Shown: positions 9,380 through 32,762, counted from the first letter of the stretch. The stretch is DNA of 64,000 nt from an uncultured Gammaproteobacteria bacterium (GCA_964486505.1 CAZAMC010000002.1:193656-257655), one strand, 5' to 3'. Notes: generated by a model not told the origin, from the letters alone. Made by a program: numbers and translations.

Positions 9380-9380
9380 G

Positions 9381-9401: not shown

Positions 9402-9490
9402 GCCTCCGGCCCGGCTTGCTCTCGATGGGTCGCAAGCTTCGATTCCCTTCAGACAAACGACCAGTCAGCACGGTGTGCTGCCTGTTCGTC

Positions 9491-9566
9491 TGGCGGACCC
9501 GAAGGGAATCGAACCCTCGGTCTCCTCCGTGACAGGGAGGCGTGTTAACCGCTACACTACGGGTCC
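9491..9566 (-). tRNA. tRNA-Asp (anticodon GTC), CCA encoded
   Basis: Cloverleaf on minus strand: GGACCCG/TA/GTGT-AGCGGTTA-ACAC/G/CCTCC-CTGTCAC-GGAGG/AGACC/GAGGG-TTCGATT-CCCTT/CGGGTCC/G/CCA. Confidence 0.85.
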
Positions 9567-9631
9567 AATACTAGCTGGCCGATTGTAACACGCGGTTCGC
9601 CGTCTGCCAATACCCACGGTATACTTCACCA

Positions 9632-9985
9632 ATGCAACATATCAAGAGCGCTCACGCTCCATGGACACGCAAGCCAGGCTATAGCAAGAAAGTTCTCGCG
9701 ACCCCAGAAACGCTCAAAAAGCCAGGCCTCCTCGTGCAGGAGTTGGAGATTGCCCCAGGGCAAGTAGCTGAAAGCCACTACCACAAGCAGCAAGTGGAGA
9801 TTTTCTACTTTCTCAATACCGTTGGGGAATTTTGGGTGAATGGTGAACGGGTTCCACTTGCAGCGGGGGATATTCTCATGGTTGAACCCCATGACAAACA
9901 CGAAGTTCGCAACACAAGCACCAAGCCGTTTCGGTACGTGGCATTCAAGTACAATTGGATTGAAGACGATTACTTTGAGGATTAG
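9632..9985 (+). CDS. cupin-domain protein
   Basis: 117 aa with cupin-2-like motif pattern (ESHYHKQQVEIFYFLNTVGEFWVNGE...AAGDILMVEPHDKHEVRN). Confidence 0.65.
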   Translation: MQHIKSAHAPWTRKPGYSKKVLATPETLKKPGLLVQELEIAPGQVAESHYHKQQVEIFYFLNTVGEFWVNGERVPLAAGDILMVEPHDKHEVRNTSTKPFRYVAFKYNWIEDDYFED

Positions 9986-17935: not shown

Positions 17936-18064
17936 GGTATTCTCCTTTTATTCACGTGCAATTTTCTGTCGGCACCTTAGCGCGCGGTAGGCGTTTGGTC
18001 AATTGCATGTCTTGCCAGCGAACGTCATTTATCGTACACTCACCCCCGCACAGTCATCTTGTCT

Positions 18065-21000
18065 ATGGCGAAGAAACCGCACACTGCGAAGGACGCAACC
18101 GCACCATCGAGCGAACGTCCAGCGACGCCCTTCCCCGCCCTCGAGGAAGCGGTTTTGCAATTGTGGAAAGACGAGAAGGTTTTTCAGAAATCATTACAGC
18201 AGACGAAAGCCGGTACACCATTCGTATTTTTCGAAGGGCCGCCCACGGCGAACGGGAAACCAGGCATCCACCACGTTCTGGCGCGCGCGTACAAAGACGT
18301 CATCGTGCGGTACAAGACGATGCAAGGCTACTTCGTGGAGCGAAAAGCCGGCTGGGACACGCACGGTCTGCCGGTGGAGCTGCAAGTAGAAAAGGCCTTG
18401 AAGATATCGGGGAAGCAGCAAATAGAGAATCTTGTCCCTGGTGATGTGCAGGCGAGCATTGAGAAATTCAATGCCGCGTGCAAGAAGAGCGTCATGGAGT
18501 ACCGGAAAGATTGGGAGCACCTTACCAGCCGAATTGGTTTTTGGCTGGACCTCAAGCATCCGTACATTACCTACGATCCCGAATACATCGAGAGCGTGTG
18601 GTGGGTTTTCCAGCAGGTGTGGGAGAAAGGTTTGGTGTACAAGGGGCACAAGGTGGTGCCCCACTGCCCACGCTGCGAGACCGCCCTCTCCTCGCACGAG
18701 GTGGCCCAAGGCTACAAGAACGTTACGGATACGTCGGTGTACGTTAAGTTCAAGGTAACGCAGAGCACTGTGCCAACGTTGCAGAATCTCTTAAGCAAAG
18801 GTGAAGAGGTCTTCGTGCTCTCGTGGACGACCACGCCGTGGACATTGCCGGGTAACGTGGCCTTAGCTATTGGCAAAGACATGGCGTATCAATTGGTGAA
18901 GCATGACGGTGCGTACCTCATCCTGGCGAAAGAACGTATGGCGGTTCTGGGTGATGATGCAAAAGTTCTGGAAGATCTTACAGGTGAGCAGCTCATTGGC
19001 ACAGCCTACGAGCCGCTGTTCCCCGGCGCGGTGAAGAAGGGGAACTCTCCCACAGCCTGGACAGTCCTGCCTGCCGATTTCGTGACCACAACGGATGGTA
19101 CGGGGGTGGTGCACACGGCCGTGATGTACGGTGAAGATGACTACAAGCTTGGCGAAGAAGCAGGGTTGCCGAAAGTGCACACTGTGGATCCGACCGGGAA
19201 GTTTTTGCCAAGCGTCGCCAAGTGGGCGGGGAAGTTCGTGAAAGACCCGGGCGTGGAAACGGACATTATCACCGATCTCAAGGAACGGGGGTTGCTGCAC
19301 AAGGTGGAGCAGTTTGCGCACGATTACCCCTTCTGCTGGCGTTGCAGCACCCCTTTGCTCTACTACGCCAAAGATAGCTGGTTCATCCGGATGTCGGACG
19401 TGCGATCGAAGCTCATTGAGAACAACCGAACTATCAACTGGGTGCCCGCGTACCTAAAGGAAGGGCGTTTTGGGGAGTGGCTGAAAGACGTCAAAGATTG
19501 GGCCATCTCCCGGGAGCGCTACTGGGGCACGCCCTTGCCCATCTGGGAATGTGCGCAGTGCAAAGCGCAGAAGGTGGTGGGAAGTTTTGCAGATTTGCAG
19601 CTGCCAGAAAAGCAGGTAGACGTTCTCATGCTGCGTCATGGTTTCTCGAAAAAGAACAAACCCTCGATTATCCAGGGCAATGTTGAAGAGAGCCACCTGC
19701 ACGGCCTGACGCCCGAAGGAGCAGCGCAGGTGAAGAAGACTGCGCAGAAGCTAAAAGGGAAAATTGACGTTATTGTTGCCTCTGATTTTGAACGGACACG
19801 GGAGACCGCGCAGATCGTTAGTGACGTCACGGGTGCGCCAGTCACGTACGACCCAGACTTGCGAGAAATTCAAACGCCCGACTGGGAAGGACAGCTCGTG
19901 GTGGAGGTTCGTAAAAGCCTGCCCGATCCTTTACCCATGAGCCACCACCTTGGTGGGGGCGAGAACTACTATCAGGTTCGTGAGCGGATGCAGCGAGCTG
20001 TGCAACAGGCAATCCGCACGCACGCAGGAAAACGCGTGCTGATTGTCTCGCACGGTGACCCGCTGTGGATTTTGAAGTGGTCGTACTCGAACGTGCCGGA
20101 AAGCCAGTACCCCGAAACACCGTACCCGAAGAAGGGCGAGGCAGAGCATTTACGGGTGCCGTTGCAATTCGATCCGCACCGGCCGTTCATCGACGACGTC
20201 ACGTTGACGTGCGAGAAGTGTGACGGCACTATGCACCGCGTACCCGAGGTGCTGGATGTGTGGTTTGATTCTGGGGCCATGCCGTTTGCCCAGTGGCACT
20301 ACCCGTTTGCGGAGAAAGCCCGGGTAGACGAGGGTACGAATTTTCCGGCGGACTATATTTCCGAAGCAATCGATCAAACCCGCGGGTGGTTCTACACGCT
20401 CCTCGCCATCTCTACCTTGCTCGGCAAAGGGGCACCGTATAAGAACGTCATTTCCCTTGGCCACATCCTGGATGCCAAGGGCCAGAAGATGAGCAAGTCC
20501 AAGGGCAATGTGGTGGTGCCCGCTGACGTCATAAACCGCTACGGTGCCGATGCGCTGCGCCTGCACCTCTTCACCATGAGCCAGGCCGGCGACCCGAAGA
20601 ACTTCGACGTGCAGGGTGTGGACGACGTGGTGAAGAAGACGCTGCTCATTTACTGGAACATCGTAACGTTCTATCAAACCCACGCGGGCGAGCACGTGCA
20701 TGTTGTTCCAGAGAAACCTAGCCACATCATGGACCAGTGGATACTGGCCCGGTTGAGTCAGGTGACCGGTGTGGTAACGGCGAAACTGGATGGATACGAC
20801 CCGACTACGGCAGCGCGCACCTTGCAAGAATTCATCACCGATCTTTCTACCTGGTACGTCCGCCGGAGCCGAGACCGCATGCGGCACGGTAAGCACACCT
20901 CAACCGAAGCAGCCGCTGTGCTCCGGCACGTCATCCGCACCACGGCCGGGCTCCTGGCCCCATTTGCCCCATTCGTCAGCGAACACGTGCACCAGCAACT

Positions 21001-21589
21001 CCGGCACATCGATGAACCCGTGAGCATTCACCTCATGCCCTGGCCAACTGCCGTCGCTGCCGATACCGCGGTCCTGGACGATATGCAGCGGGTACGAGAT
21101 GCAGTAGAACTCGGCCATGCAATTCGGAAGGAACAGAATCTCAAAGTTCGCCAGCCGCTTGCGAGCGTATTCGTTAACCATGAGCTCCAGCCCGACCTCC
21201 AGCAGGTGCTGCGGGAAGAGCTGAACGTAGAGGCGTGCACTGTAGACAAAGCTATGCCCCCCGGGTGGGTAGGCAAGGCCAAAGGCGCGCTCATGGTGGC
21301 GCTCAATACCACCATTGATGAAGATCTTCGTCATAAAGGTTTGGTCCGGGAGCTGGCCCGTCACGTGAACGACTTGCGGAAGGCAGCGGGGCTCACGGTA
21401 AAAGACGTGGTCGACGTGGAATGGATGACCGACGACCCAACGTTGCAGCATGCGTTTACCGAGCACGCCGCTGAGTTGCGCGAATTCACGAAAGCCCGGA
21501 GCATAAAGGCCAGCAGCGTGCTGCAGGTGACCCACAAGAAGGAGCTCATCATCGGCGATGCTCGGGTAACCATTGGCATTACCGCATGA
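18065..21589 (+). CDS. ileS: isoleucine--tRNA ligase carrying an embedded histidine-phosphatase (SixA/PGAM-like) domain
   Basis: HIGH-region PPTANGKPGIHH, KMSKSKGN, the WAISRERYWGTPLP and DVWFDSG motifs, and a long C-terminal anticodon-binding region. About 160 aa between the CxxC...CxxC zinc knuckle halves read LRHGFS...HGLTPEGAAQ...ASDFERTRETAQ...VLIVSHGDPLWIL. Confidence 0.85.
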   Translation: MAKKPHTAKDATAPSSERPATPFPALEEAVLQLWKDEKVFQKSLQQTKAGTPFVFFEGPPTANGKPGIHHVLARAYKDVIVRYKTMQGYFVERKAGWDTHGLPVELQVEKALKISGKQQIENLVPGDVQASIEKFNAACKKSVMEYRKDWEHLTSRIGFWLDLKHPYITYDPEYIESVWWVFQQVWEKGLVYKGHKVVPHCPRCETALSSHEVAQGYKNVTDTSVYVKFKVTQSTVPTLQNLLSKGEEVFVLSWTTTPWTLPGNVALAIGKDMAYQLVKHDGAYLILAKERMAVLGDDAKVLEDLTGEQLIGTAYEPLFPGAVKKGNSPTAWTVLPADFVTTTDGTGVVHTAVMYGEDDYKLGEEAGLPKVHTVDPTGKFLPSVAKWAGKFVKDPGVETDIITDLKERGLLHKVEQFAHDYPFCWRCSTPLLYYAKDSWFIRMSDVRSKLIENNRTINWVPAYLKEGRFGEWLKDVKDWAISRERYWGTPLPIWECAQCKAQKVVGSFADLQLPEKQVDVLMLRHGFSKKNKPSIIQGNVEESHLHGLTPEGAAQVKKTAQKLKGKIDVIVASDFERTRETAQIVSDVTGAPVTYDPDLREIQTPDWEGQLVVEVRKSLPDPLPMSHHLGGGENYYQVRERMQRAVQQAIRTHAGKRVLIVSHGDPLWILKWSYSNVPESQYPETPYPKKGEAEHLRVPLQFDPHRPFIDDVTLTCEKCDGTMHRVPEVLDVWFDSGAMPFAQWHYPFAEKARVDEGTNFPADYISEAIDQTRGWFYTLLAISTLLGKGAPYKNVISLGHILDAKGQKMSKSKGNVVVPADVINRYGADALRLHLFTMSQAGDPKNFDVQGVDDVVKKTLLIYWNIVTFYQTHAGEHVHVVPEKPSHIMDQWILARLSQVTGVVTAKLDGYDPTTAARTLQEFITDLSTWYVRRSRDRMRHGKHTSTEAAAVLRHVIRTTAGLLAPFAPFVSEHVHQQLRHIDEPVSIHLMPWPTAVAADTAVLDDMQRVRDAVELGHAIRKEQNLKVRQPLASVFVNHELQPDLQQVLREELNVEACTVDKAMPPGWVGKAKGALMVALNTTIDEDLRHKGLVRELARHVNDLRKAAGLTVKDVVDVEWMTDDPTLQHAFTEHAAELREFTKARSIKASSVLQVTHKKELIIGDARVTIGITA

Positions 21590-22347
21590 GCCTACACGAC
21601 GTAACGGGCATCGTGCTGCGCCGGCGTGACGTGCGGGAAGACAGTCGACTCTATACCATCTTCACCCACGAGCGCGGGAAGCTGGAGGTTTTTGGTCGTG
21701 GCATCCGAAAAGGCCGGGCGAAATTGGGTGGGCACCTAGAACCGGGTGCCACGGTACGGGTAACGTTGGCCCGTGGAAAAACCGGCGAAACGATTACCGC
21801 CGTCGAACGCAGTCATTACCCCGCGGCCACCATGGCAAACTTGGGGCGCCTTGCCAGCCTGGGATTTTTTCTCAGTTTAGTGGATGCGGTAACAAAACCC
21901 GAGTCGGCTGATCCGGCGTTGGCTTCGTTTGCGCAGGAAGCTATTAGCACCTTGGAACATTTACCGGCTGATCCGGCTGAGCAATCTCGGTTTCGCATGT
22001 GGGTAGCCTGGCGCGTTTTGGATTGCAGCGGCCATAGTCCCGAGCTCACGCACTGTGTACACTGCCGAAAATCATTGGCCGACAACGTGCGCTACTCTGC
22101 CCAGCTCGGCGGCTGGCTGGATGCCTCCTGCTACACTGCCGACGCCAGCGCCCTCGTCGTTGGCCCGGCTGTCCGCGAGGTCGTGCGCCAGTTCGTGCGT
22201 GGTGCCTGGGAGGAGTTACCCGCTATTCCCCCCGAACGTCCAGTCGAAAAGGATGCGGCCGCTGTGACGCGCGCCGCCCTGGATCACGTTCTGGAGCGCC
22301 GCCTACCAGCCGAGCGCTTCGTGCAGTTCACGCGCAGTCTCAGTTGA
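21586..22347 (+). CDS. recO: DNA repair protein RecO
   Basis: N-terminal OB-fold region (GIVLRRRDVREDSRLYTIFT...GKLEVFGRG) and a CxxC zinc motif (CVHCRK). ATGA overlap with the ileS stop. Confidence 0.7.
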   Translation: MSLHDVTGIVLRRRDVREDSRLYTIFTHERGKLEVFGRGIRKGRAKLGGHLEPGATVRVTLARGKTGETITAVERSHYPAATMANLGRLASLGFFLSLVDAVTKPESADPALASFAQEAISTLEHLPADPAEQSRFRMWVAWRVLDCSGHSPELTHCVHCRKSLADNVRYSAQLGGWLDASCYTADASALVVGPAVREVVRQFVRGAWEELPAIPPERPVEKDAAAVTRAALDHVLERRLPAERFVQFTRSLS

Positions 22348-24434
22348 GCAATCGAGCGGCGCAGCGTATACTTGCTAGTACCATGCCGAAAGCAAAAGCC
22401 ACCGATAGCGAGGGGACCCGTCGGGTTCCCGTCCGACGCGTTCGTGGGAAAGAAGCCGAAGCCCTTCCCGAACCAGAACCCAACGAACCGGATACGAAGC
22501 CGGAAGCCGAAACCGTCGAGGTCGAGCCGGCGGGTGAGTCCTTACCGGTGCGTTCCCGGCGCGCAACGCAGAGCTTGCGGGATAACGTCCTCAGCGAAAT
22601 TTACCGCGAAGAAGGGGAGACCCCGACCGATACCGACGTGACACGTATCCAGCGGAAGCAAAAAAAATCCCGTAAACTCCTCATCAGCTTCATCGTGCTG
22701 GGAGTGCTAGCGGTCGCAGCGGCTGCCGGGTATTTCATTTTTAGCCGGCAGAGCCGCTTCAGCGAACAGGTGACACTCACGGCGTCAGCAGCGTCGGAAG
22801 TTGCATCTGGCGATGACCTCACCGTGAGCGTGCAGGTGAAGAACGAAGAAGGTATTGCTCTGCGGAATGCCGAGCTCACCTATACGGCGCCCGAGGGTTT
22901 TACGTTCCGGACGAGTACGCCCTCGCCCTCGAATGAGTTTAACAATGCGTGGGGCCTGGGGACGGTTCAGGAACACGGCGGTACGACGGTGAGCATTAGC
23001 GGGCGGCTGCTTGGTGAGCAGAGTCAGGAAAAAGTATTCTCGTTCATGCTCACGTACACGCCCGCGAATTTTAATACTGAGTTCCAAAAATCTGTGGAGG
23101 TGCGGGTGGTCATTAATAAGACCGTCTTGCACATAACGCCCGAAGTGCCTTTGCGCATTCCACCGAAGACCCCCACCGTCATTCCAGTAACTGTGGAGAA
23201 TACGGGGAGTGACAGTCTGGACGCGGTTCGACTGGTGGCCGAGTACCCTGAAGGATTCACCTATAGCAGCGCCGAGCCAAAAGCGTCGGAGAAAGATACG
23301 GTGTGGGACTTGGGTACGCTGAAGGCTGGGCAAAAAGTGACGGTAAAAATTACCGGCGCTCTCGACCAACCAGTTGGGTCGACACCCGAGTTTAAATTCC
23401 GTGCTGGACGGGTGGCTGCTGCTGGCTTCCAGGCGCAGACGGAAGTAAGTGGGATTGGCACGGTGGTGCAGTCTGGAATGGCCCTGAAGGTTGTGGTTAC
23501 CAATCCGGGCAGCGGCGCAGCCATTGGTTGGGGCGAAACGCTCAACTACGTCATTACCTACACCAACGAGAGTGACGCGGAAATGCGTGACGTCAGCATA
23601 ACGATGGAGTTTAGTCAGAAAAACGTTGAGAGCGTTGATGTGGACATTCTGGATTTGGACAACCGCTCAGACTTGAGCAAGGGCAAGCTGGCAGGGCGCA
23701 CCCTTACGTGGACGAAGAAGGAAGTACCGGCGCTCGCCGCTGTTGCTGGCGGAAAGTCGGGTGACCTTTTGCTCCGTATTCCGCTGCGGTCGGGCCCGAA
23801 CATTCGTTCACAAGCCGACCGGAACTTTGCCATTACGAGTGCGGCCCGGCTCACCGTGGGGAGTGTTGATGGCTTAGATCAGAAGAGCATTGAAACCCAA
23901 GCCACACCCGTAACCACGAAAGTGACATCCAAGCTGAATGTGGAACCCGAAGGGCGGTACTACAGCGACGAGCAAATTCCGGTTGGCACGGGCCCGCTCC
24001 CTCCGCAAGTCGGCCAGGCCACCACGTATGAGCTGGGCTGGGTGTTAGCGAATCCGACGAATGAGGTCACCCAAGTTGTTGTGAGTGCTACGCTGCCCGA
24101 TGGTGTAACGTGGGCTGGGAAGCAGTCGGTAACGGCTGGCCAAGCTGTGGCGTACGAGGCGACCACGCGGGAGGTGACCTGGCGTGTGAATCGCGTGCCG
24201 CCGGGTACGGGAACCCTGTTCGCGAGTCTAGAGGCGAAATTCGAGGTGAGCGTTACTCCTACCGCTACGGATCTGGGGAAGCTCCTCATTCTCCTCAACC
24301 AAACGGTGGTGACTGCCCGAGACGAGTTCACGACCCAAGACCTACGGGTGGAGAAGGCCATCATCACCAGTGACTTGCCAAACGACGTTGCCGCGCAGGG
24401 GAAAGGCTTAGTCGTCGCCGCGCCGGCGGTGTAG
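22344..24434 (+). CDS. membrane-anchored surface protein with DUF11-type (conserved repeat domain) repeats
   Basis: Charged disordered N-terminus, one TM helix (LLISFIVLGVLAVAAAAGYFIF), then repeated about 100-aa beta-rich modules (e.g. VENTGSDSLDAVRLVAEYPEGFTYSS...WDLGTLKAGQKVTVKITGAL). 4-nt overlap with recO. Confidence 0.5.
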   Translation: MSNRAAQRILASTMPKAKATDSEGTRRVPVRRVRGKEAEALPEPEPNEPDTKPEAETVEVEPAGESLPVRSRRATQSLRDNVLSEIYREEGETPTDTDVTRIQRKQKKSRKLLISFIVLGVLAVAAAAGYFIFSRQSRFSEQVTLTASAASEVASGDDLTVSVQVKNEEGIALRNAELTYTAPEGFTFRTSTPSPSNEFNNAWGLGTVQEHGGTTVSISGRLLGEQSQEKVFSFMLTYTPANFNTEFQKSVEVRVVINKTVLHITPEVPLRIPPKTPTVIPVTVENTGSDSLDAVRLVAEYPEGFTYSSAEPKASEKDTVWDLGTLKAGQKVTVKITGALDQPVGSTPEFKFRAGRVAAAGFQAQTEVSGIGTVVQSGMALKVVVTNPGSGAAIGWGETLNYVITYTNESDAEMRDVSITMEFSQKNVESVDVDILDLDNRSDLSKGKLAGRTLTWTKKEVPALAAVAGGKSGDLLLRIPLRSGPNIRSQADRNFAITSAARLTVGSVDGLDQKSIETQATPVTTKVTSKLNVEPEGRYYSDEQIPVGTGPLPPQVGQATTYELGWVLANPTNEVTQVVVSATLPDGVTWAGKQSVTAGQAVAYEATTREVTWRVNRVPPGTGTLFASLEAKFEVSVTPTATDLGKLLILLNQTVVTARDEFTTQDLRVEKAIITSDLPNDVAAQGKGLVVAAPAV

Positions 24435-24483: not shown

Positions 24484-24873
24484 ATGGCCGACTCCCTCGC
24501 TCGCAATGCCACGCGTTTCGTCCTCCATGAATTCGTGGTGGACGTATTGCTTTTCCCGCTGTGGTGGTATGGGAAGGGGTTCATTCGGGTTGGCCGTTTC
24601 ACCCTCAGCCGGATAGCCGAGTTTGCCAACCGCAGTCGGTGGAGCCCTAAAGTGTGGTTCCAGAATTTGTTCGTGCCCATGTACGGCGACTACTCGCGTA
24701 GTGGCCGGGCGATTAGTTTCTTCATCCGTTTGTTCGTGGCTCTCGGTCTTACTGTGGCGCTGGTTATTGCCGTGGTCGCGTACCTCCTCTACTTCGTTGG
24801 GTATCTCGTGGCGCCTGTTGCGGTGGTGTACTTCTTCTTGCGTCAACTCGTCAGCCTACCCTGGCCGTCGTAA
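24484..24873 (+). CDS. hypothetical small membrane protein
   Basis: 129 aa, two hydrophobic helices. Extended -10 (TGGTATACT) about 20 nt upstream. Stop is 3 nt before the Clp ATPase start. Confidence 0.4.
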   Translation: MADSLARNATRFVLHEFVVDVLLFPLWWYGKGFIRVGRFTLSRIAEFANRSRWSPKVWFQNLFVPMYGDYSRSGRAISFFIRLFVALGLTVALVIAVVAYLLYFVGYLVAPVAVVYFFLRQLVSLPWPS

Positions 24874-24876
24874 CGC

Positions 24877-27609
24877 ATGGCAAAACTCCCGCCCAATCCT
24901 TCGATCATCCTCTCCTGCCCAACCTGTGTGGCCGGTGTGGCGGCGTGTCCTGGATGCAACGGCCGACGATCCGCGATGTGGCTCATGGGCCAGATTTTCG
25001 TGTGGGACCGGAAGATTGACCGTTGGCACATTGCCGAAGAACGTTTGCAGCGGGGGCTTCACCGCGCGTTTAATGCGTTGCTCATTATCTTTGGCCTCGT
25101 TGGCATCGGCCTTCTGGTGTGGCAGGTCATGGAGCGCAACGTCGCGTTTGAGTTCTCGAGCGTCCGAGACTTCCTGGGTACGCGGACCGGCTGGCACCTG
25201 GTTATCGCCCTCTCTTTGCTCGGTGACCTCATCGTTACCGCGCGCCTGGTGAAAGGCCGGCAAGAGCGCGTGCTTGTGGCGCACCGGGATAGCGAACTCC
25301 TCGCCGTGCCTGCGCCCACCCTGAGCTGGCCAGACCTGGTCCGGGAGCAGAACCGTTTCCAAGATGTGTCTGGGGCTTTCCTAGAGCCCGCGCACCGCGC
25401 CATTGAAGGCGCATGGTCGCTCGCGGAGCGCTTGCAACATCGCAGCGTTGAACCGCTCCACCTATTTGCCGCGCTGTTCGCCCTGCACGATACCCAGGTG
25501 GTTTTCGGTCGGCTGGGCATACAAAGCCAAGGCTTGAGCGAACGCGTAACGCGCGCGCTCTCCCGGCTCCCCCAAGCCAGTGCGCCGCCTACGGTCAGTG
25601 GCCCCTTTGTGGGTGCGCTCCTGCGTGCCTACCAGGAAGCAGTCTTTGCTTCCAAGCCCGTTGTGGATGTTCCTGAACTCATCGTGTCGGTCGGGCACGA
25701 CGCGCAGGTGAGCGAAATTCTGGCTGACCTCGCCATTGATGAGCAGAAGCTAAGAAACGTAGTGGCGTGGATTAGCATTACCCGCCGGCTCTCTCGGGGG
25801 TACCAGCGCTGGCGTCGGCAAGCGCGCTTCCGCGGCAAGGGCGGGATGAACCGAGCGTTCACGGCCATTGCTACGCCCATGTTGGACCAGTTTAGCCACG
25901 ACCTCACGCAGCTGGCGCGAAACGGATCGCTGGCGCACTGCATTGGTCGGGAGAAGGAATTTGAAGAAATCTTCCGTGTGTTCGAGGGCGGCCGGGCCAA
26001 CCCGCTACTCGTCGGCTTGCCGGGCGTGGGCAAGACTTCCATTATCGATGGTCTGGCGTACCGCATGGTGGCCGATGACGTGCCACTGGTCTTGCAAGAC
26101 AAGCGCTTGGTGAGTTTGTCCGTTGCGTCCATTGTTGGCACTGCGGGTCGGCAGGGTGAGCTGGAAGAACGCTTCAACATCATCCTTTCCGAAATTTCCC
26201 GGTCCGGGAATATCGTGCTGTACATCGACAATGTCCAGAATTTGTCTGGCCTCACTACCGAGGGCGGCAGCCGTTTGGACTTAGCTGAAATGCTGGCACA
26301 GGCGCTGGGCCACCAGGCTTTCCTGTGCATTGCCACCACGAATCCGCTCGACGAGCACCGTTACGTGGAGCGATCCAGCTTGCAGTCCGTTTTCCAGCGC
26401 GTACCGGTGAACGAAGTAGACACCAACGGGGGCATCCAAATTCTGGAAGGGAAAGCGGGAACAATTGAGTATAAGCAGTCGGTGCTATTCAGCTACGACG
26501 CCATAGAAAAGGCGGTCACGCTGTCGCAGCGCTACATCCACGATCGCTACTTGCCCGAGAAGGCCGTTAGCCTTGCCGAAGAAGCGGCGGTGTACGTGCA
26601 CAAGACGCGCGGGAAGGGGAGCGTGGTTACTGGCGAGGACGTAGCCGCAATTGTTGCCGAGCGAACGAGCATTCCCGTCACGCAGGTCACGCAAGCCGAA
26701 ACCGAAAAACTGCTCAAACTGGAAGACCGCATCCACGAACGGGTCATTGGTCAAGATGAAGCCGTGAAAGCCGTTTCGGCCGCCTTGCGCCGGGCCCGCG
26801 CTGAACTTCGGGACGCCCGGCGTCCGATTGCGAACTTCTTGTTTCTCGGGCCTACGGGTGTAGGGAAGACCGAACTTGCGAAAGCGGTGGCCGAGGTGTA
26901 CTTCGGCGATGAGAAGAACATGATTCGCCTCGACATGTCTGAGTACCAGGTGCAATCCAGCCTAGGCCGGCTCATTGGCACGCCCGATGGTGAGGGGGGC
27001 TACCTTACTGAGGCCATTCGGAAGAATCCATTTTCTTTGCTCCTGCTGGACGAATTAGAGAAAGCGCACCCTGACATTCTCAACGTATTCTTGCAGGTCA
27101 TGGATGATGGCCGGCTTACCGACAGCACGGGCCGCACCGTGGACTTCACCAACGTCATTCTCATTGCCACCTCGAATGCCGGCACGCCCATCATCCAGGC
27201 CGGCATGAACGCCGGCGAGAGCCTGGAGAGCATCAAGCAGCGCCTGGTGACGCAAGAGCTGGCCCAGCACTTCCGGCCAGAATTCCTCAACCGCTTCGAC
27301 GGCATCATTGTGTTTAAGCCCCTCGACTTCCCGCAGGTCATTGCCATTACTAAGCTCATGCTCGCGCAGCTGGGGGAGATCCTGAAAGGCAAAGGCGTGC
27401 AGCTGCGGGTGAGCGAAGCCGCCGTAATGGAGCTCGCGCAAGTTGGTTTTGACCCGCAGTTCGGCGCCCGACCGCTGCGCCGTGCGCTCCAAGAGCACGT
27501 GGACAACGCCTTGGCGAATGCACTGCTCACCGGCCAGCTGGCGCGGCGGGACGTAGCCGTGCTGGAACCCGGCGGAAAAGTTCGGGTAGAGAAGGCGAGC
27601 GAAGTGTAA
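24877..27609 (+). CDS. ClpA/ClpC-family double-ring AAA+ ATPase with N-terminal zinc-ribbon and transmembrane segment
   Basis: Two Walker A sites (GLPGVGKTSI; GPTGVGKTELAKAV), Clp_N-like repeats and a short inter-domain linker with no long ClpB-type M-domain. The N-terminus has CPTCVAGVAACPGCNGR followed by a hydrophobic helix (ALLIIFGLVGIGLLVW). Confidence 0.8.
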   Translation: MAKLPPNPSIILSCPTCVAGVAACPGCNGRRSAMWLMGQIFVWDRKIDRWHIAEERLQRGLHRAFNALLIIFGLVGIGLLVWQVMERNVAFEFSSVRDFLGTRTGWHLVIALSLLGDLIVTARLVKGRQERVLVAHRDSELLAVPAPTLSWPDLVREQNRFQDVSGAFLEPAHRAIEGAWSLAERLQHRSVEPLHLFAALFALHDTQVVFGRLGIQSQGLSERVTRALSRLPQASAPPTVSGPFVGALLRAYQEAVFASKPVVDVPELIVSVGHDAQVSEILADLAIDEQKLRNVVAWISITRRLSRGYQRWRRQARFRGKGGMNRAFTAIATPMLDQFSHDLTQLARNGSLAHCIGREKEFEEIFRVFEGGRANPLLVGLPGVGKTSIIDGLAYRMVADDVPLVLQDKRLVSLSVASIVGTAGRQGELEERFNIILSEISRSGNIVLYIDNVQNLSGLTTEGGSRLDLAEMLAQALGHQAFLCIATTNPLDEHRYVERSSLQSVFQRVPVNEVDTNGGIQILEGKAGTIEYKQSVLFSYDAIEKAVTLSQRYIHDRYLPEKAVSLAEEAAVYVHKTRGKGSVVTGEDVAAIVAERTSIPVTQVTQAETEKLLKLEDRIHERVIGQDEAVKAVSAALRRARAELRDARRPIANFLFLGPTGVGKTELAKAVAEVYFGDEKNMIRLDMSEYQVQSSLGRLIGTPDGEGGYLTEAIRKNPFSLLLLDELEKAHPDILNVFLQVMDDGRLTDSTGRTVDFTNVILIATSNAGTPIIQAGMNAGESLESIKQRLVTQELAQHFRPEFLNRFDGIIVFKPLDFPQVIAITKLMLAQLGEILKGKGVQLRVSEAAVMELAQVGFDPQFGARPLRRALQEHVDNALANALLTGQLARRDVAVLEPGGKVRVEKASEV

Positions 27610-27707
27610 GGCACGTTTTTTACGAAGCTGCTCCGCATTGACGAGCGGGGGTTTTTTGCGTAGGGTAGGCCCACGAAATGGTTCTTGAACAATGAAAGGA
27701 GCAGATT

Positions 27708-28904
27708 GTGCGAAGTACGCATTTTCTCGGTGACCGCACCGTTTGCACGGTCAGTTACCAGCAGCAACGGCTAGACGTTACGGTTCGGCCATTCTGTGGC
27801 ACGCGCGCGTACGTCATTGAAGAGTCAGCGGCTGAGCCGCAACTCGTTGGCCAGTGCACGATGCCCCGATGGCCCGCTCAGGTTGAATCGCGCGCCCGGG
27901 TTCACCACCAGCGCCTGTCGCTACGTGCCGATAACGTACTGTACCCGGTCTACGACGATGTCTACGGTCTGCATCGGACGCTGAGCCATGTGCTGGATCG
28001 GTATGAAATGAACGAGGTGCCCCGGTTGACGACGGCTCTGGAGTACTGCCAGATCCTGCATAGCGTGCTCCTCGGTTTGCGGAAAGACAACTTCCAAGAA
28101 CTCATCGGCCGCATCGAAGCCCTTGTGGATCAGGTGGTGCACGCTATTGGCCTGCAGGTGAAAAATGAGGAGAAGGACGAAGCACTAGAGCGGATCATCA
28201 TCACGCGGAAAGGCGTGGACTCGCTCAACCGCGTGAATAGCAGCGCTGCCTGCTTGCGCATGCTCACCGCGGTGGGCAACCTCATCCACCGTGAAGCGCA
28301 GGTGTCGGACATTAGCGAAGTGTACGCGGGTCGACGACAAGCGGTTCGGCTGGCCTTAGCCATGTTGGAAACGCAGGTGCTGATTGTGGAAGATTTCCTC
28401 ACCCAGATCCTGGCAAATTGGCAGATCGTGCGAGTGCGGCGCCGGGAACTCACCGCGGCGCAGCTGGATCAATTCGCCAAGACACTGAGCCTCATTTGGG
28501 TGAAGCCGTTCAGCGTCACGTTCCAGCACGTGGTGAGAGAGTTCACCACCGCCGCCCAGCACATTCGGGTTGGACGCTTGGACCAGGCTCAACCTTTGCT
28601 GGCCACCTCTGCTGCGAGCTTGCGACTCCGCAAACTCCGCGTGCAGCTGGAGGCTGTGCACTACCGCGTATCGAGCGCCACGTATGATCCGCACATGCGT
28701 AAGCGTGCAGATCAGATTGCGCAGGTTGCGCTTTCTGAATTGTCACCGCTCGTGCAAGAGTTGCAGGCAGTGAACACGCTGGGGATGGTTGACTTTTCCA
28801 GTGCGGTAACCCTGTCAACACTCGCAGACGTGCAGGCCGCTCTGGCTGAAGGGAACTGTGCGGTCGCGGCCGACAACTTCCGTTTAGCCCTCCGCGATCT
28901 CTAA
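27708..28904 (+). CDS. hypothetical alpha-helical protein (GTG start)
   Basis: AAAGGAGC lies 6 nt upstream of GTG 27708. 398 aa, Leu/Ala/Arg/Gln-rich, no recognisable motif. Immediately downstream of the Clp ATPase. Confidence 0.4.
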   Translation: MRSTHFLGDRTVCTVSYQQQRLDVTVRPFCGTRAYVIEESAAEPQLVGQCTMPRWPAQVESRARVHHQRLSLRADNVLYPVYDDVYGLHRTLSHVLDRYEMNEVPRLTTALEYCQILHSVLLGLRKDNFQELIGRIEALVDQVVHAIGLQVKNEEKDEALERIIITRKGVDSLNRVNSSAACLRMLTAVGNLIHREAQVSDISEVYAGRRQAVRLALAMLETQVLIVEDFLTQILANWQIVRVRRRELTAAQLDQFAKTLSLIWVKPFSVTFQHVVREFTTAAQHIRVGRLDQAQPLLATSAASLRLRKLRVQLEAVHYRVSSATYDPHMRKRADQIAQVALSELSPLVQELQAVNTLGMVDFSSAVTLSTLADVQAALAEGNCAVAADNFRLALRDL

Positions 28905-28943: not shown

Positions 28944-29047
28944 CGTCCCACGCCAGCGGAAGAAGAGAAATTTTTACCGAGTACGGTTTTTTTGAGGGAA
29001 ACAAATTCGGTGAAGAGCAGTATTGGAACCGCTGGCCCAAAAATACT

Positions 29048-29125
29048 GCGGCTGTAGCTCAGGGGTAGAGCCTGGGGGATTCTCCATAGCCCTCACTGTC
29101 GGTGGTTCAATTCCATCCAGCCGCA
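29048..29125 (+). tRNA. tRNA-like gene with atypical anticodon arm (identity uncertain; possibly pseudo-tRNA)
   Basis: Normal acceptor stem (GCGGCTG/CAGCCGC), D-arm (GCTC-AGGGGTA-GAGC) and T-arm (GGTGG-TTCAATT-CCATC) with discriminator A. The segment between them is 6 nt longer than canonical. The best fold is an 8-bp anticodon stem with one mismatch and loop TCTCCAT, read as UCC/Gly but with C33. Confidence 0.5.
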
Positions 29126-29135
29126 AAAAATACAC

Positions 29136-29209
29136 CGCAGGGTAGCTTAGAAGGTGCAAAGCGTTGGCTTCATACGCCAAAGACGCTGGTTCAAGTCCAG
29201 TCCCTGCAA
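29136..29209 (+). tRNA. initiator tRNA-fMet (anticodon CAT)
   Basis: C1:A72 mismatch at the top of the acceptor stem. Three consecutive G:C pairs at the bottom of the anticodon stem (TTGGC/GCCAA). Loop TTCATAC, T-loop GGTTCAAGTCC. CCA not encoded. Confidence 0.8.
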
Positions 29210-29217
29210 TTCTTTCT

Positions 29218-29252
29218 GCGGACGTCTTGTCACGAGACGTCCGCTTTTCTTG
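29218..29252 (+). terminator. intrinsic terminator after the tRNA pair
   Basis: GCGGACGTCT-TGTCAC-GAGACGTCCGC stem-loop followed by TTTTCTTG. Confidence 0.6.
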
Positions 29253-29287
29253 TCCAAAGACGCAAAAAACCGTACACTGCAAGCACT

Positions 29288-30628
29288 ATGCCGGTCACCA
29301 TGGACACCCTGGTTTCGTTCGCCAAGCGTCGCGGTTTCATTTTCCCCACCGCCGAAGTGTATGGCGGTTTGGGTGGCTTTTGGGACTTTGGTCCCTTGGG
29401 CGTGGAGCTCAAGAATAATATCAAACGGGAATGGTGGAAGCGCTTCGTGCAGCAGCGCAACGATGTGGTAGGCTTGGATTCGGCAATCGTTACCAATCCG
29501 AAAGTTTTTGAAAAGAGCGGCCACTTGGTAAATTTTCACGATGCACTCGTAGAGTGCAAGAAATGTCACCAGCGCTTTAAGGCGGATGATGTTGCCAAGG
29601 CGTGCTCCAATTGTGGAGGTACAGAGTTCACGAAACCAGCGAATTTCAATTTAATGTTCAAGACGTTCATCGGTTCTACCGAGGAGAGCGTCTCCACCGC
29701 GTACCTCCGCCCGGAAACGGCACAGGGGATTTTCGTGAACTTCCAGAATGTGCGGCAGAGCATGCGCCTGAAACTCCCTTTCGGCATTGGCCAGATTGGC
29801 AAAGCCTTCCGCAACGAGATTACCCCAGGCAACTTCATTTTTCGTTCCCGCGAATTTGAGCAAATGGAGCTGGAGTTTTTCTGCAAGCCAGGGGAGGATG
29901 ACACGTGGTTTGACTACTGGCGCCAAGAGAGCATGCAGTGGTTTCTAGATCTCGGCATGAAGAAGGCCAACATTCGCTTCACTGGCCAACCCAAGTCCGA
30001 ATTGGCGCACTACTCCAAGGCGACAACGGACATTGAGTACCACTTCCCATTTTCCGGCGGAGCCGGACCCCGCTCCGCGGGAGAGAAGGGCTGGGCTGAA
30101 CTCATGGGCGTGGCGAATCGGACAGACTTCGATTTGAAGGCGCACGGCCAGACCTTCCGGGATGAAGAAGCGAAAGGGGACATCACGCCCTTCTGCATTG
30201 AGCCATCCGCAGGTGTAGACCGCGCAGCACTGGCTTTCTTGATTGATGCCTACGAAGAAGTGGAAGGCGGCCGTACCACCACCACCGAAGCGAACAAGGA
30301 GAAAGAAGTTGTCTTACGGCTTAGCAAGCGGCTTGCACCGATTAAAGTTGCTATCCTGCCCCTCTCTAAGAAAGAGCCCTTGGCTACCAAAGCTAAGGAA
30401 GTTCAGGCTTTGTTGCAGAAGGACTTCGTCACCTGGTACGACGATACGCAGTCCATTGGCCGCCGCTACCGTCGGCAGGACGAAATTGGCACGCCCTACT
30501 GTGTGACTGTGGACTTCGAGACCGTCGAGAAAGACAACGCTGTCACCGTCCGCGACCGGGATACCATGGCGCAGGAGCGGATTGCAATCACTGAACTTCA
30601 CTCGTACATAACGAAGCAATTCTCTTAG
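29288..30628 (+). CDS. glyQS: glycine--tRNA ligase (alpha2 homodimeric type)
   Basis: VYGGLGGFWDFGPLG, class II motifs and a C-terminal anticodon-binding domain. ATG 29288 is used because the longer ORF-track start overlaps the tRNAs. Confidence 0.85.
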   Translation: MPVTMDTLVSFAKRRGFIFPTAEVYGGLGGFWDFGPLGVELKNNIKREWWKRFVQQRNDVVGLDSAIVTNPKVFEKSGHLVNFHDALVECKKCHQRFKADDVAKACSNCGGTEFTKPANFNLMFKTFIGSTEESVSTAYLRPETAQGIFVNFQNVRQSMRLKLPFGIGQIGKAFRNEITPGNFIFRSREFEQMELEFFCKPGEDDTWFDYWRQESMQWFLDLGMKKANIRFTGQPKSELAHYSKATTDIEYHFPFSGGAGPRSAGEKGWAELMGVANRTDFDLKAHGQTFRDEEAKGDITPFCIEPSAGVDRAALAFLIDAYEEVEGGRTTTTEANKEKEVVLRLSKRLAPIKVAILPLSKKEPLATKAKEVQALLQKDFVTWYDDTQSIGRRYRRQDEIGTPYCVTVDFETVEKDNAVTVRDRDTMAQERIAITELHSYITKQFS

Positions 30629-30725: not shown

Positions 30726-31652
30726 ATGACCAAGACCCTCCGCACCGGCATCCTCCTCGCCCTCGGCACAGCCGCCATCTCGGGTTTGTCGAACTTCGTG
30801 GCCAAGGTGAGTGTCACGGTGGTAAAGGACGCCACGCTCTTCACGTTCCTGAAGAACGCCATTGTCGGCGTGCTCGTTGTAGGCTTGGTGATGCTGTTCG
30901 TGCAGTGGAAAGAGTTGCGCGAGCTGAAGCGCGCAGACTGGCTCAAGCTTGCTGCCATTGCCGTCATTGGCGGGAGCGTGCCGTTCCTCCTCTTTTTCAA
31001 TGGTTTGCAGCAGACGACGGCCGTGCACGCTAATCTCATCCACAAGACTTTGTTCGTGTGGGTGGCGATTCTGGCGTGGGTGAGCCTAAAGGAAAAGGTT
31101 ACGCGCTGGCACGTAGCGGCGCTCGCCCTTCTCCTCACGGGCACGTTTGCCCTGGGCGGTTTGCAAGGTTTTCACTTGGGGGCGGGGGAGTGGATGGTGC
31201 TTGGCGCTACGTTGCTCTGGGCGGTGGAGAATGTTCTGGCAAAGAAAGCGCTTGCGCAGCTCTCAACCCTCACGGTTGTGGCAGCACGCATGTTCCTGGG
31301 TTCGCTCGTGCTTCTCGGCGTTGTTCTAGTGCAAGGGAAAATGAGCCTGGTGAGCACGCTCACCTTTGATCAGTGGGGCTGGGTGGTGTTACCGAGTTTG
31401 CTGCTGTTTGGCTACGTGCTCACCTGGTACAGCGCGCTCAAGCGCGCGCCCGCGACGTTGGTCGCAAGCCTCTTGGTTCCCTCCGTATTCATCACGGCTT
31501 TGCTCTCGGGCACGTTTCACAAAGGGCCAATTACGGGTCAGCAGTGGCTTTCGGGCGCCATCGTAACCCTGGGTGTAGCGCTTTTCATTTGGGCGTCTCG
31601 CCGTAGTGCTGCGCATGTCCACACTCCAAACCCCGAGCAGGATCCGGCCTGA
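30726..31652 (+). CDS. EamA/DMT-family transporter
   Basis: Ten-helix membrane protein with duplicated EamA-like halves. Confidence 0.65.
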   Translation: MTKTLRTGILLALGTAAISGLSNFVAKVSVTVVKDATLFTFLKNAIVGVLVVGLVMLFVQWKELRELKRADWLKLAAIAVIGGSVPFLLFFNGLQQTTAVHANLIHKTLFVWVAILAWVSLKEKVTRWHVAALALLLTGTFALGGLQGFHLGAGEWMVLGATLLWAVENVLAKKALAQLSTLTVVAARMFLGSLVLLGVVLVQGKMSLVSTLTFDQWGWVVLPSLLLFGYVLTWYSALKRAPATLVASLLVPSVFITALLSGTFHKGPITGQQWLSGAIVTLGVALFIWASRRSAAHVHTPNPEQDPA

Positions 31653-32379
31653 CGGCGTTCGCCGTGCAGCTCGGTACGGCTTCGGGCCGAACCGCTTGCA
31701 CCTGTGCGGACCGGATGCGAACCGCGAAGTGTACGCGTACCTGGAGGCCGGGGTTACCGACCCGGGCTTACAGTACCTGCTGAAAGGCTTCACCACGCTC
31801 TACCCGTACCTGGAAGAAATTGCTCGGTCTAATCACATAGCTGACCCGTTTGACGACCGCGTGGTGGAGGCGTACTGGGTGGGGAACGCGCTCCTCGAAA
31901 CCATCCCGCCTCAGGTGTACTACAAACACCTGCGGGATAACCTTGATTTGAAGCGGAAGTACGGGTTTAAGGAATTTGAAGAACTCGTCGCGAAACTCGG
32001 CAAGGGTGCGCGCATGCACCACAACGTGCACGTGCTGAACGCGTACAAGCGCACGGGCCACGACGCTAAGCTCCACACCTTAGAGAGCATGGATTCGTGC
32101 CGGGTGAGCTGGGGTGAGGTTGTTACCGTGGAGGGGCCTTCGGTAACGGTAAAGCGTCAGCCGCTGGTGCAACAGGACAGGAAGTTGCGCTTGGGTGATC
32201 CGGTCGAGCACAAACTGCGCCGACGCCTGGAAGAAGATGGTTCACTGGATGACCTGGCGCCCGGCGACGTGGTGACCATGCACTGGGGTGTGGTGTGTGA
32301 AGTCATCCCCAAACCCAGCGTCCGGCACCTGGCCCACTACACCAACCTCGCCATGCAGCTGAGTAACCAAACGCTCTAG
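31606..32379 (+). CDS. hypothetical protein (start uncertain; overlaps end of upstream gene)
   Basis: 257-aa soluble ORF with no motif assigned. Immediately upstream of the hydrogenase maturation protease candidate. Confidence 0.35.
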   Translation: MLRMSTLQTPSRIRPDGVRRAARYGFGPNRLHLCGPDANREVYAYLEAGVTDPGLQYLLKGFTTLYPYLEEIARSNHIADPFDDRVVEAYWVGNALLETIPPQVYYKHLRDNLDLKRKYGFKEFEELVAKLGKGARMHHNVHVLNAYKRTGHDAKLHTLESMDSCRVSWGEVVTVEGPSVTVKRQPLVQQDRKLRLGDPVEHKLRRRLEEDGSLDDLAPGDVVTMHWGVVCEVIPKPSVRHLAHYTNLAMQLSNQTL

Positions 32380-32381: not shown

Positions 32382-32762
32382 ATGGATATCTGGGTCTTTG
32401 GGAACCTTGATGTGCAGGAGGACAGTTTGCCGCTGCGCATCCTGCCTCAGCTGCAGCGCCAGCGACCGGACCTCACCTTCAAAACCCGTGACCCACTGGA
32501 GGAGTGGGACGAGGTGCCCGACCCGTTCATTATCGTGGATACCGTAAAGGGATTGCGCACGGTGGCGGTCTTCACAGACCTGAGTGCTTTCGCCGATGCG
32601 CCGCGCGTGACCATGCACGACCTCGACTTGCTCGCGCAGCTGCAGCTCTTGCAGAAGCTTGGCAAGCTCAAACGCCTCACTCTGGTTGGCGTGCCGCCGG
32701 AGCTTGGGCCAGACGAAGCGGTTACGCAGATCGCAGCTTCGCTCCCGCCAGTTTCAGCGTGA
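32382..32762 (+). CDS. putative [NiFe]-hydrogenase maturation endopeptidase (HycI/FrhD-like)
   Basis: N-terminal IWVFGNLDVQEDSLPLRI resembles the GxGNxxxxDDGxGxRV motif of hydrogenase maturation proteases. Convergent with the hydrogenase large subunit, whose C-terminus has a cleavable extension. Confidence 0.45.
   Translation: MDIWVFGNLDVQEDSLPLRILPQLQRQRPDLTFKTRDPLEEWDEVPDPFIIVDTVKGLRTVAVFTDLSAFADAPRVTMHDLDLLAQLQLLQKLGKLKRLTLVGVPPELGPDEAVTQIAASLPPVSA

Follow-up and report, generated by a model that had tools for sequence, protein, structure and literature searches.

A Patescibacteria Hsp100-type ATPase with a predicted membrane anchor, a degenerate first ring and a small membrane-protein partner

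In a 64,000-nucleotide stretch of DNA (here called the window; GCA_964486505.1, CAZAMC010000002.1:193656-257655, deposited under the name of an uncultured Gammaproteobacteria bacterium), two adjacent genes encode a 129-residue membrane protein and a 910-residue ATPase of the Hsp100/Clp type. The ATPase carries a predicted membrane anchor, keeps the nucleotide-handling motifs of its second ring (D2), and has lost the catalytic residues of its first ring (D1) together with the substrate-gripping loops of both. The small protein is a true partner of the ATPase: at every locus surveyed it is encoded directly upstream or, in some lineages, fused to the N-terminus of the ATPase. We propose that the two proteins form a membrane remodeller that is independent of ClpP, driven by D2, built of two subunits and specific to Patescibacteria, and that works without canonical substrate threading; we assign this reading a probability of roughly one half. 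An initial annotation, made from the sequence alone, had described a membrane-anchored zinc-ribbon ClpA/ClpC-like unfoldase, bracketed by the small membrane protein and by a 398-residue protein encoded downstream that might be its adaptor or substrate.

Results

Family assignment and fold of the ATPase

The 910-residue protein is an Hsp100/Clp-type double-ring ATPase whose two tandem AAA+ modules carry AAA_lid_9 and ClpB_D2-small domains (Pfam: AAA_2, 1e-53; ClpB_D2-small, 5e-20; AAA_lid_9, 9e-12). The top-ranked NCBIfam families are ClpB, ClpA, ClpK, ClpG and ClpV, and the scores reach about half of each curated cutoff or less: 615.6 vs 1232.1 bits (TIGR03346) and 512.4 vs 1417 bits (PRK10865) for ClpB, 511.1 vs 993.15 bits (TIGR02639) and 402.5 vs 1350 bits (PRK11034) for ClpA/ClpC, 476 vs 885 bits for ClpV/TssH, 504 vs 1900 bits for ClpK and 494 vs 1900 bits for ClpG. 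PADLOC returns generic AAA matches only. The closest sequence match in the PDB is Bacillus subtilis ClpC (E = 3e-145). An AlphaFold2 (AF2) model calculated from a 107-sequence family alignment has a mean predicted local distance difference test score (pLDDT) of 93.4 and a predicted template modelling score (pTM) of 0.87, and Foldseek superposes its two-ring body on ClpC and ClpB protomers with template modelling (TM) scores of 0.85–0.89 and rmsd values of 3.3–3.7 Å.

In front of the two rings lies what appears to be a divergent Clp N-domain. The initial annotation spoke of Clp_N repeats, and the region does align to the N-domains of ClpA and ClpB, but Pfam finds a single Clp_N repeat, which scores 19.6 bits and thus falls below the 20.7-bit cutoff. 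The alignment to the ClpA profile TIGR02639 begins at residue 173 and spans the domain, homologues of the ATPase carry a precomputed PF02861 match, and the domain is all-helical in the AF2 model. By blastp it matches the N-domain of a Patescibacteria ClpB (locus L052, below) with 24.5% identity (E = 2e-6); the corresponding identities for D1 and D2 are 36% and 50%.

Degeneration of the first ring and loss of the substrate-gripping loops

Hsp100/Clp ATPases are the textbook example of substrate threading by pore-loop tyrosines. We called the motifs of the ATPase from a residue-level alignment to B. subtilis ClpC and read them against cryo-EM work on ClpB (PMC6546751). In ClpB the substrate is contacted by Y251, Y653/V654 and E639-H641, and mutation of contact residues abolishes activity (PMC6546751). 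In D1 of the window protein the Walker A motif is intact, and the pore loop, the Walker B motif and the Arg-finger positions are all substituted (Table 1). In D2 the Walker A, Walker B and sensor-2 motifs and the Arg finger (NRFD) are intact; a five-residue deletion has removed the GYVGY pore loop, and the secondary D2' loop reads VQS in place of EKH. The initial annotation called the two-ring architecture canonical. This does not hold, since D1 has degenerated and neither ring retains its substrate-gripping loops, which also weakens the label of unfoldase or disaggregase.

Two further elements of known Clp ATPases are absent. The M-domain is missing, with ClpC residues 402–459 lacking a counterpart at a point where our sequence runs on continuously; the ClpB profile match splits into two stretches, and the AF2 model contains no coiled-coil insertion. 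The ClpP-docking segment is six residues shorter than that of ClpC, and VGF of ClpC aligns to AGM here and to EEI, DEI, EGI or other tripeptides in relatives. D2 therefore has no ClpP-docking loop of the IGF/IGL kind for which the initial annotation suggested looking. That annotation also noted no ClpP-like gene nearby, and we found neither a ClpP-like open reading frame (ORF) nor a second Clp paralog in the 64-kb window, which was searched for the former with a ClpP query sequence. We regard it as extremely improbable that the protein is an unfoldase of the ClpA/ClpC type that delivers substrates to a ClpP from another part of the genome. Members are publicly annotated as ClpC, and ClpC is the best PDB match in both sequence and fold, but the shortened docking helix-loop-helix with its unconserved tripeptide (AGM/EEI/DEI/EGI), the missing pore-loop tyrosines, the absence of ClpP from the window and a ClpA score of 511 vs 993 bits all argue otherwise.

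Conservation and distribution of the family

An exhaustive HMMER search recovered at least 150 cluster representatives at 50% identity, and motif statistics were collected on 146 of these. Most representatives are ~840–960 residues long, and ~80 align from about query residue 10–40 through the C-terminus. The D2 Walker A motif is present in 100% of the 146 and Walker B in 99%, while GYVG occurs in none (0%). For D1 the figures are 6% for the Walker-B DE pair, 4% for a pore-loop aromatic residue, 9% for the RR pair and 48% for GK[TS]. The D2 loop region is rich in Gly and Ser and varies in length between 14 and 22 residues, and is therefore not under selection. A Tyr or Phe follows directly after this loop (GG[YF]LTE) in 33% of members.

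The most informative relative is found at locus L052 (Candidatus Kerfeldbacteria, GCA_016182495.1), where the small gene and a 921-residue family member are followed 570 nucleotides downstream by a gene for an 857-residue ClpB (8333–10906), with only a 171-residue ORF in between. This ClpB is fully canonical, with KYRGEFE, IDELH, ERRFQ, an M-domain, GYVGYEEGG and EKH. Since a canonical ClpB sits beside the family member, the family is a specialised paralog, and the motif losses are specific to it and not a general drift of reduced genomes. The same arrangement ruled out the idea that the family is merely the candidate phyla radiation (CPR) version of ClpB. It is also very unlikely that the ATPase is a ClpB-type, DnaK-dependent disaggregase simply tethered to the membrane. 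ClpB is its best NCBIfam match, the ClpP-loop region has a ClpB-like length, and dnaJ lies two genes upstream in Uhrbacteria-type loci. On the other hand, the M-domain, the element that docks Hsp70, is missing, the score is 615 bits against a 1232-bit ClpB cutoff, the pore-loop tyrosines are gone, and a true ClpB coexists in L052.

Two of the loci carry ATPase genes that are interrupted inside the N-domain. In L001 the cause is a 1-nucleotide deletion in an A-run (9990–10001), and in L003 a single G-to-T change creates an in-frame TAG (920–922) where others have GAA or GAG. A programmed event was considered and rejected: both are single-base changes in assemblies of 1.4–1.8x coverage, and the window, L008, L013, L015, L018 and L019 all carry an uninterrupted gene. 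Both are probably sequencing errors. Of all the readings that we weighed, the least probable is that the gene is a decaying or non-functional Clp paralog under relaxed selection in reduced genomes. The wide loss of D1 motifs and the interruptions in L001 and L003 would fit such a history, but conservation of the D2 motifs is 99–100% over at least 146 clusters (50% identity). Members from several candidate phyla agree in length and in the layout of membrane segment, N-domain, D1 and D2, and their N-terminal modules fall into defined types (with a Cys motif, without one, or with a fused small domain). The AF2 model is very confident, and the interruptions themselves are of the single-base, low-coverage kind described above.

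The source names encountered among family members are Patescibacteria or candidate phyla belonging to it, the exceptions being a few titles that are generic or probably mislabelled, and homologues of the window protein are named Patescibacteria, Kerfeldbacteria or Parcubacteria. Seven metagenome-assembled genomes with third-party annotation (L019, L020, L022, L025, L027, L028 and L033) contain the module with its neighbours under the title 'uncultured Gammaproteobacteria'; this record taxonomy is probably wrong. Public names of the proteins are 'AAA family ATPase' or 'ATP-dependent Clp protease ATP-binding subunit ClpC'. A full-text literature search found no paper describing this ATPase family, and the clp genes mentioned in a TM7x transcriptome paper are those of the host only.

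Pairing of the small membrane protein with the ATPase

The stop codon of the small gene and the start codon of the ATPase gene are separated by 3 nucleotides in a common reading frame, in agreement with the 3-nucleotide distance given in the initial annotation. This leaves no space for a separate ribosome-binding site, an arrangement that implies translational coupling of the two genes. The same spacing is found in L008, L013, L015, L018, L019 and L054. In these loci and in the window, a stop codon and one further codon are all that lies between the two same-frame genes, and read-through of the stop codon would recreate a fused small protein–ATPase form.

To survey the pairing we scanned one genome per GTDB species for the conserved peptide of the small-protein family, which yielded 42 loci. 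At all 42, an ORF matching the ATPase (E ~1e-61 to 0) begins a few bases after the stop codon of the small gene, overlaps it, or is fused to it. The informative titles among these loci are Kerfeld-, Uhr-, Falkow-, Dojka-/WS6- and Saccharibacteria and generic Patescibacteria/Parcubacteria, and nine are uninformative or probably mislabelled. A search in the opposite direction, beginning with the ATPase, added L052 and L054, both of which have the small gene directly upstream. True fusions of the two proteins occur in L045 and L050, and a hidden Markov model of the standalone small proteins matches the N-terminal part of the ATPase in 8 of 150 representatives (E = 5e-14 to 2e-5), which constitutes a classic gene-fusion link. 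The suggestion that the ATPase forms a dedicated module with the upstream membrane gene is thereby upheld, and co-occurrence in other genomes, on which the initial annotation had made its proposal depend, holds for the 129-residue protein.

The small-protein family comprises 22 Patescibacteria proteins, in which F63, P65, G74, R75, R82 and P111 are invariant. An N-terminal region with the conserved motifs FPxWWY (residues 24–29) and LFVPMYGDxSxxGR (residues 62–75) precedes the hydrophobic part. The initial annotation gave this protein two helices; by hydropathy the hydrophobic part is one continuous stretch of ~40–50 residues. From the sequence, the N-terminal region may be cytosolic, and ~40 residues of the hydrophobic stretch (~78–119) are a candidate hairpin. 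No Pfam, NCBIfam or PADLOC family was found for the protein, and all 23 alignment members gave scattered chance matches only when compared with Pfam.

In the Uhrbacteria-type loci (L020–L039) dnaJ and tgt lie upstream of the module, dnaJ two genes away, and a MraY/WecA-like glycosyltransferase gene and rplU lie downstream. A role in defence was considered and ruled out by the housekeeping contexts, which are ileS-recO...glyS in one clade and dnaJ-tgt...rplU in another.

N-terminal extension and membrane anchor

The ATPase begins with an extension in which four cysteines are arranged as C14-P-T-C17-x6-C24-P-G-C27. Orthologues keep C14, C17, C24 and C27 while the intervening residues vary, so the extension is real and its start codon is supported, and the initial annotation's concern that the extension might be missing from orthologues as an artefact of a wrong start can be set aside. 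The family consensus of the region is CxxCxGxG-x5-7-CxxCxGxG. PF00684 (DnaJ_CXXCXGXG) is the best Pfam match in six of seven relatives tested and the second-best in the seventh, always below threshold (18–24 bits vs a cutoff of 32.7) and with the match limited to the final two repeats of the profile. The window copy (CPTCVAGV...CPGCNGRR) has no PF00684 match and has lost most of the Gly positions; judged by these alignments, it represents a degenerated version of the CxxCxGxG pair, DnaJ-like in type, that relatives have, a resemblance and not PF00684 membership.

The N-termini of 137 complete representatives fall into 79 with the Cys4 motif, 8 with a different, fused domain and 50 with neither. 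The motif is thus dispensable, being missing from ~40% of the family. The four-Cys zinc ribbon of the initial annotation therefore stands as a conserved Cys4 site, but one that corresponds to a DnaJ-type pair in relatives and that 58 of 137 members do without. Profile searches and structure prediction of the N-terminus, which the initial annotation recommended, yielded the sub-threshold DnaJ-type matches just described and a model in which residues 10–42 form a short strand plus a beta-hairpin, with two long helices (49–89 and 105–129) after them. In members from Uhr-, Dojka- and Saccharibacteria the Cys motif is gone and the beta-hairpin and both helices are kept.

Residues 64–85 and 106–125 are the sole strongly hydrophobic segments within the first 200 residues, and 136 of 137 complete family representatives have at least one such segment. 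We predict that the ATPase is anchored in the membrane by a two-helix hairpin. The initial annotation had placed a single transmembrane helix after the Cys motif; the anchor itself is retained, but hydropathy and the AF2 model both give two helices. Since two membrane helices bring the chain back to the cytoplasm, the Cys4 site and the ATPase would both lie inside the cell, and this predicted cytosolic placement is the only sensible topology. A membrane anchor is indeed unusual compared with characterised Clp ATPases, as the initial annotation remarked, but within Patescibacteria it belongs to a large standard family.

The downstream 398-residue protein

The third gene of the region encodes a protein with a beta-rich N-terminal region and a helical C-terminal half. 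It has only 7 close homologues among 5.8 billion sequences, and among the loci compared its homologues occur only in those of a Kerfeldbacteria-like clade, the closest one. Pfam, NCBIfam and PADLOC hold no family for it; its AF2 model has a pLDDT of 64, and Foldseek finds no match in the PDB (best E = 0.47, TM score below 0.35).

The initial annotation regarded this protein as a partner of the ATPase, and a three-gene module in which it is a dedicated adaptor or substrate of the anchored ATPase has two points in its favour. The gene follows the ATPase directly on the same strand in the window, L010, L011 and L013 (gaps of 56–230 nucleotides), and the protein is conserved within the clade. We nevertheless consider such a three-gene module unlikely. 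No homologue was found in 32 loci of Uhr-, Falkow-, Dojka- and Saccharibacteria. Within the clade the distance is variable: in several relatives the gene lies 0.3–5.5 kb from the ATPase with opposite-strand genes between (an opposite-strand gene and a cupin gene in L008 and L002), in L001 it is 5.5 kb away, beyond purA, guaB and further genes, and in L004 there is none within 4 kb. What the gene does track is glyS, upstream of which it is found at every locus whose downstream sequence was read. Finally, it has its own ribosome-binding sequence (GGAG, 7 nucleotides 5' of the GTG start) and is preceded by a terminator-like hairpin, which suggests that the two-gene transcript ends before it; the hairpin's fold is no more stable than that of shuffled sequence, and the region shows no enrichment of terminator-like sites. 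On these gene arrangements, we judge that the 398-residue protein is not part of the small protein/ATPase module.

Gene layout and genomic setting

All three ORFs of the initial annotation were confirmed on the + strand (Table 1), as was the position of the 398-residue ORF, for which the predicted distance of about 100 nucleotides measures 98, with the GTG start and ribosome-binding site in place.

Table 1 Coordinates of the module and its features, counted from the first letter of the window.
Feature	Coordinates	Strand	Evidence or remarks
Small membrane protein gene	24484-24873	+	129-aa ORF
Junction of small gene and ATPase gene, TAA-cgc-ATG	24871-24879	+	Sequence
Hsp100/Clp-like double-ring AAA+ ATPase gene, predicted membrane-anchored	24877-27609	+	910-aa ORF
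Putative Cys4 metal-binding knuckle, C14-x2-C17-x6-C24-x2-C27	24916-24957	+	Conserved in orthologues
Conserved beta-hairpin, residues 32-42, family motif '..YxW/FxW..'	24970-25002	+	AF2 strands 32-36 and 39-42, pLDDT 86-96
Predicted transmembrane helix 1, residues 64-85	25066-25131	+	Kyte-Doolittle peak 2.42; in AF2 helix 49-89
Predicted transmembrane helix 2, residues 106-125, family motif FWxSxL......YR	25192-25251	+	Kyte-Doolittle peak 1.84; AF2 helix 105-129
Probable divergent Clp N-domain, ~residues 165-320	25369-25836	+	TIGR02639, Clp_N, blastp, AF2
D1 ring module, catalytically degenerate	25879-26616	+	ClpC alignment, family table
D1 Walker A GVGKTS, intact	26014-26040	+	ClpC alignment
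D1 pore loop, G424-R425-Q426 in place of K-Y-R	26146-26154	+	ClpC alignment
D1 Walker B, D451-N452 in place of D-E	26227-26232	+	ClpC alignment
D1 Arg-finger positions, S504-V505 in place of R-R	26386-26391	+	ClpC alignment
D2 ring module, presumed sole motor	26623-27606	+	ClpC alignment, family statistics
D2 Walker A GPTGVGKTE	26848-26874	+	Intact
D2 pore-loop region encoding GTPDGEGGY, GYVGY removed by 5-residue deletion	26977-27003	+	ClpC alignment
D2 Walker B LLLLDELEKAH	27037-27069	+	Intact
D2 ClpP-docking region without [ILV]-G-[FL], ClpB-like length	27169-27285	+	ClpC alignment
D2 sensor-2 GARPLRR	27463-27483	+	Intact
Terminator-like hairpin, 6-bp GC-rich stem, 8-nt loop, U6 tail	27631-27657	+	22 nt after ATPase stop
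398-aa protein gene	27708-28904	+	GTG start; ORF

The neighbours in the window are housekeeping genes: ileS, recO, the gene for a 696-residue DUF11/CLIPPER membrane protein, the three ORFs, tRNA-Gly, tRNA-Met, glyS and an EamA transporter gene. The 696-residue protein (22344–24434, +) has an N-terminal membrane helix and DUF11/CLIPPER repeats. Its gene is upstream of the module, immediately adjacent in the window and in a number of relatives and no more than a few kb away elsewhere, and is conserved at the module in the Kerfeldbacteria-like clade (11 loci) and not in other lineages.

The isoleucyl-tRNA synthetase (IleRS; 18059–21589, +; 1176 residues) contains a histidine-phosphatase insert (PGAM-like, PF00300, E = 1.9e-34) at residues 523–688, between the halves of the catalytic core. 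The insert is also present in the IleRS of L006, L008 and L009, and not in that of L001 (1007 residues) or L004 (996 residues). The genes for tRNA-Gly(tcc) and tRNA-Met(cat) (29047–29209, +) lie between the 398-residue protein gene and glyS. A long GTG-initiated ORF (29102–30628) overlaps these tRNAs, and the true start of glyS is therefore probably an ATG near 29288. Farther downstream are genes for a DUF6390 protein (31606–32379, +), a small ORF (32382–32762, +) and a NiFe-hydrogenase large subunit (32722–34035, -), which suggests a hydrogenase cluster in this Patescibacteria genome. The last part of the window (62001–64000) has a GC content of 0.435, compared with 0.54–0.62 in the rest, and may be foreign or non-coding DNA.

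Discussion

The K-Y-R residues of the D1 pore loop, the YV of the D2 loop and the EKH of the D2' loop are lost or unconserved, and the ATPase is thus most probably no general unfoldase of the processive, threading kind. In the mechanism that we propose, the small protein and the Hsp100-family ATPase would be co-translated from their adjacent genes as a two-subunit membrane machine. By analogy, a hexamer would sit at the inner membrane face, fixed there by its own 12 helices and the hairpins of the partner, with the N-domain/D1 face toward the bilayer. D1 would act as a structural scaffold that at most binds nucleotide, and D2 alone would hydrolyse ATP. The ATP cycles of D2 would then perform conformational work on a membrane-embedded partner or client, for which the small subunit, or a complex organised by it, is the prime candidate. 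Where it is present, the Cys knuckle would be an accessory element for client binding or assembly. Such a mode would be closer in style to Torsin and other non-threading AAA+ remodellers than to ClpB or ClpC.

Several points weigh against the proposal of a non-threading remodeller. The loss of threading is read from the loss of motifs only, and the Hsp100 chassis is strongly conserved, including D1–D2 stacking, the D2-small domain, the trans Arg finger and sensor-2. A pore that faces the membrane has the geometry of the extractases FtsH and Msp1 and may support an atypical form of translocation, to which the Tyr or Phe of GG[YF]LTE in about a third of members could contribute by lining the channel. 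As far as its sequence indicates, the membrane part of the small protein is one stretch of ~40 residues, and its role as client is that of a candidate only. The pairing at 42 of 42 loci presupposes detection of the small gene, for which one peptide pattern was used.

The main rival, to which we give a real but clearly smaller chance, is a machine that has kept threading, either an extractase of membrane proteins or a disaggregase close to the membrane, whose pore would face the bilayer like that of FtsH or Msp1. Gly-rich D2 loops or GG[YF]LTE would do the pulling, the small protein and the Cys knuckle would serve as substrate receptors, and the product would be released to the cytosol. The N-terminal two-helix anchor, which would set the N-domain/D1 face at the membrane, fits this alternative, as do the fully conserved chassis and D2 ATPase motifs and the Tyr/Phe after the D2 loop in 33% of members. 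The CxxCxGxG region of DnaJ binds unfolded clients, and relatives of the window protein have DnaJ-type motifs of this kind. The pore argues in the other direction: GYVG is found in 0 of 146 representatives, a D1-loop aromatic residue in 4%, the D2 loop is variable and the D2' loop unconserved, and the equivalent residues of ClpB are the substrate contacts whose mutation abolishes activity (PMC6546751). The presence of a canonical ClpB in L052 also speaks against an extractase or disaggregase of the threading kind.

The family keeps the double-ring chassis and a fully conserved D2 ATPase site; the Tyr loops of both rings, the catalytic residues of D1, the ClpP loop and the M-domain are discarded, and a predicted membrane anchor and an obligate small membrane subunit are gained. 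It offers a natural experiment on the capabilities of an Hsp100 ring that does not thread. Because the parts that grip and thread proteins are lost, the ATPase probably works differently from any Clp ATPase studied so far. Databases at present mis-annotate this lineage-wide Patescibacteria component as 'ClpC' or 'AAA family ATPase', and annotation pipelines should not assign a Clp-protease function to these genes. Members occur in Saccharibacteria (loci L043 and L047), some of which are cultivable and genetically tractable, so that the function can be tested.

Of the known systems, ClpB/Hsp104 shares with the ATPase a probable N-domain, two AAA+ modules and a D2-small domain (fold TM score ~0.88). 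Neither has a ClpP-docking loop, the region after TSN being equal in length in both, and the window D2 is 50% identical to that of a Patescibacteria ClpB. Unlike ClpB, the ATPase has no M-domain, no D1 Walker-B Glu, Arg fingers or KYR, and no YV or EKH in D2; it adds the Cys4 knuckle, the predicted two-helix anchor and an obligate small membrane partner, and reaches half of the ClpB cutoff. ClpC is its best PDB sequence match and the name under which members are annotated, and like ClpA it lacks a long coiled-coil M-domain. It differs from ClpC/ClpA by the absence of a conserved [ILV]-G-[FL] loop, of the pore-loop Tyr and of the short M-domain that forms the MecA site of ClpC, and by its predicted anchoring in the membrane.

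FtsH, Msp1/ATAD1 and Yme1 resemble the predicted arrangement of the ATPase in that an N-terminal membrane anchor turns the entry face of the ring toward the bilayer. These proteins are single-ring classic AAA ATPases with aromatic pore loops, and FtsH and Yme1 also have a protease domain, whereas the ATPase is a double-ring Hsp100 with neither aromatic pore loops nor a protease domain. The likeness to the Cys-rich region of DnaJ is confined to the family consensus CxxCxGxG-x5-7-CxxCxGxG, which matches the last two PF00684 repeats; there is one Cys4 centre and not two, no J-domain, and the scores are sub-threshold.

Torsin is a Clp/Hsp100 relative without aromatic pore loops that is membrane-associated, depends on membrane cofactors and has been judged unlikely to thread (PMC5425593). 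We tentatively suggest, at well below even odds, that the ATPase could be a bacterial counterpart of Torsin in working principle, namely an Hsp100-derived, tethered, non-threading machine whose D2 remodels a small integral-membrane partner. If this is true, it would represent a previously unrecognised, lineage-wide machine for membrane homeostasis or the cell surface in ultrasmall, often epibiotic bacteria. Torsin, which belongs to the eukaryotic ER and nuclear envelope, is single-ring and luminal, and its Arg finger is supplied by an AAA-like cofactor; the ATPase is two-ring and predicted to be cytosolic, has its own D2 Arg finger (NRFD) and sensor-2, and its partner has no AAA-like domain. 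What it shares with Torsin and its cofactors LAP1/LULL1 is kinship with the D2 clade, an N-terminal hydrophobic segment and a membrane-protein cofactor, which makes the comparison a working analogy and not one of descent (PMC5425593).

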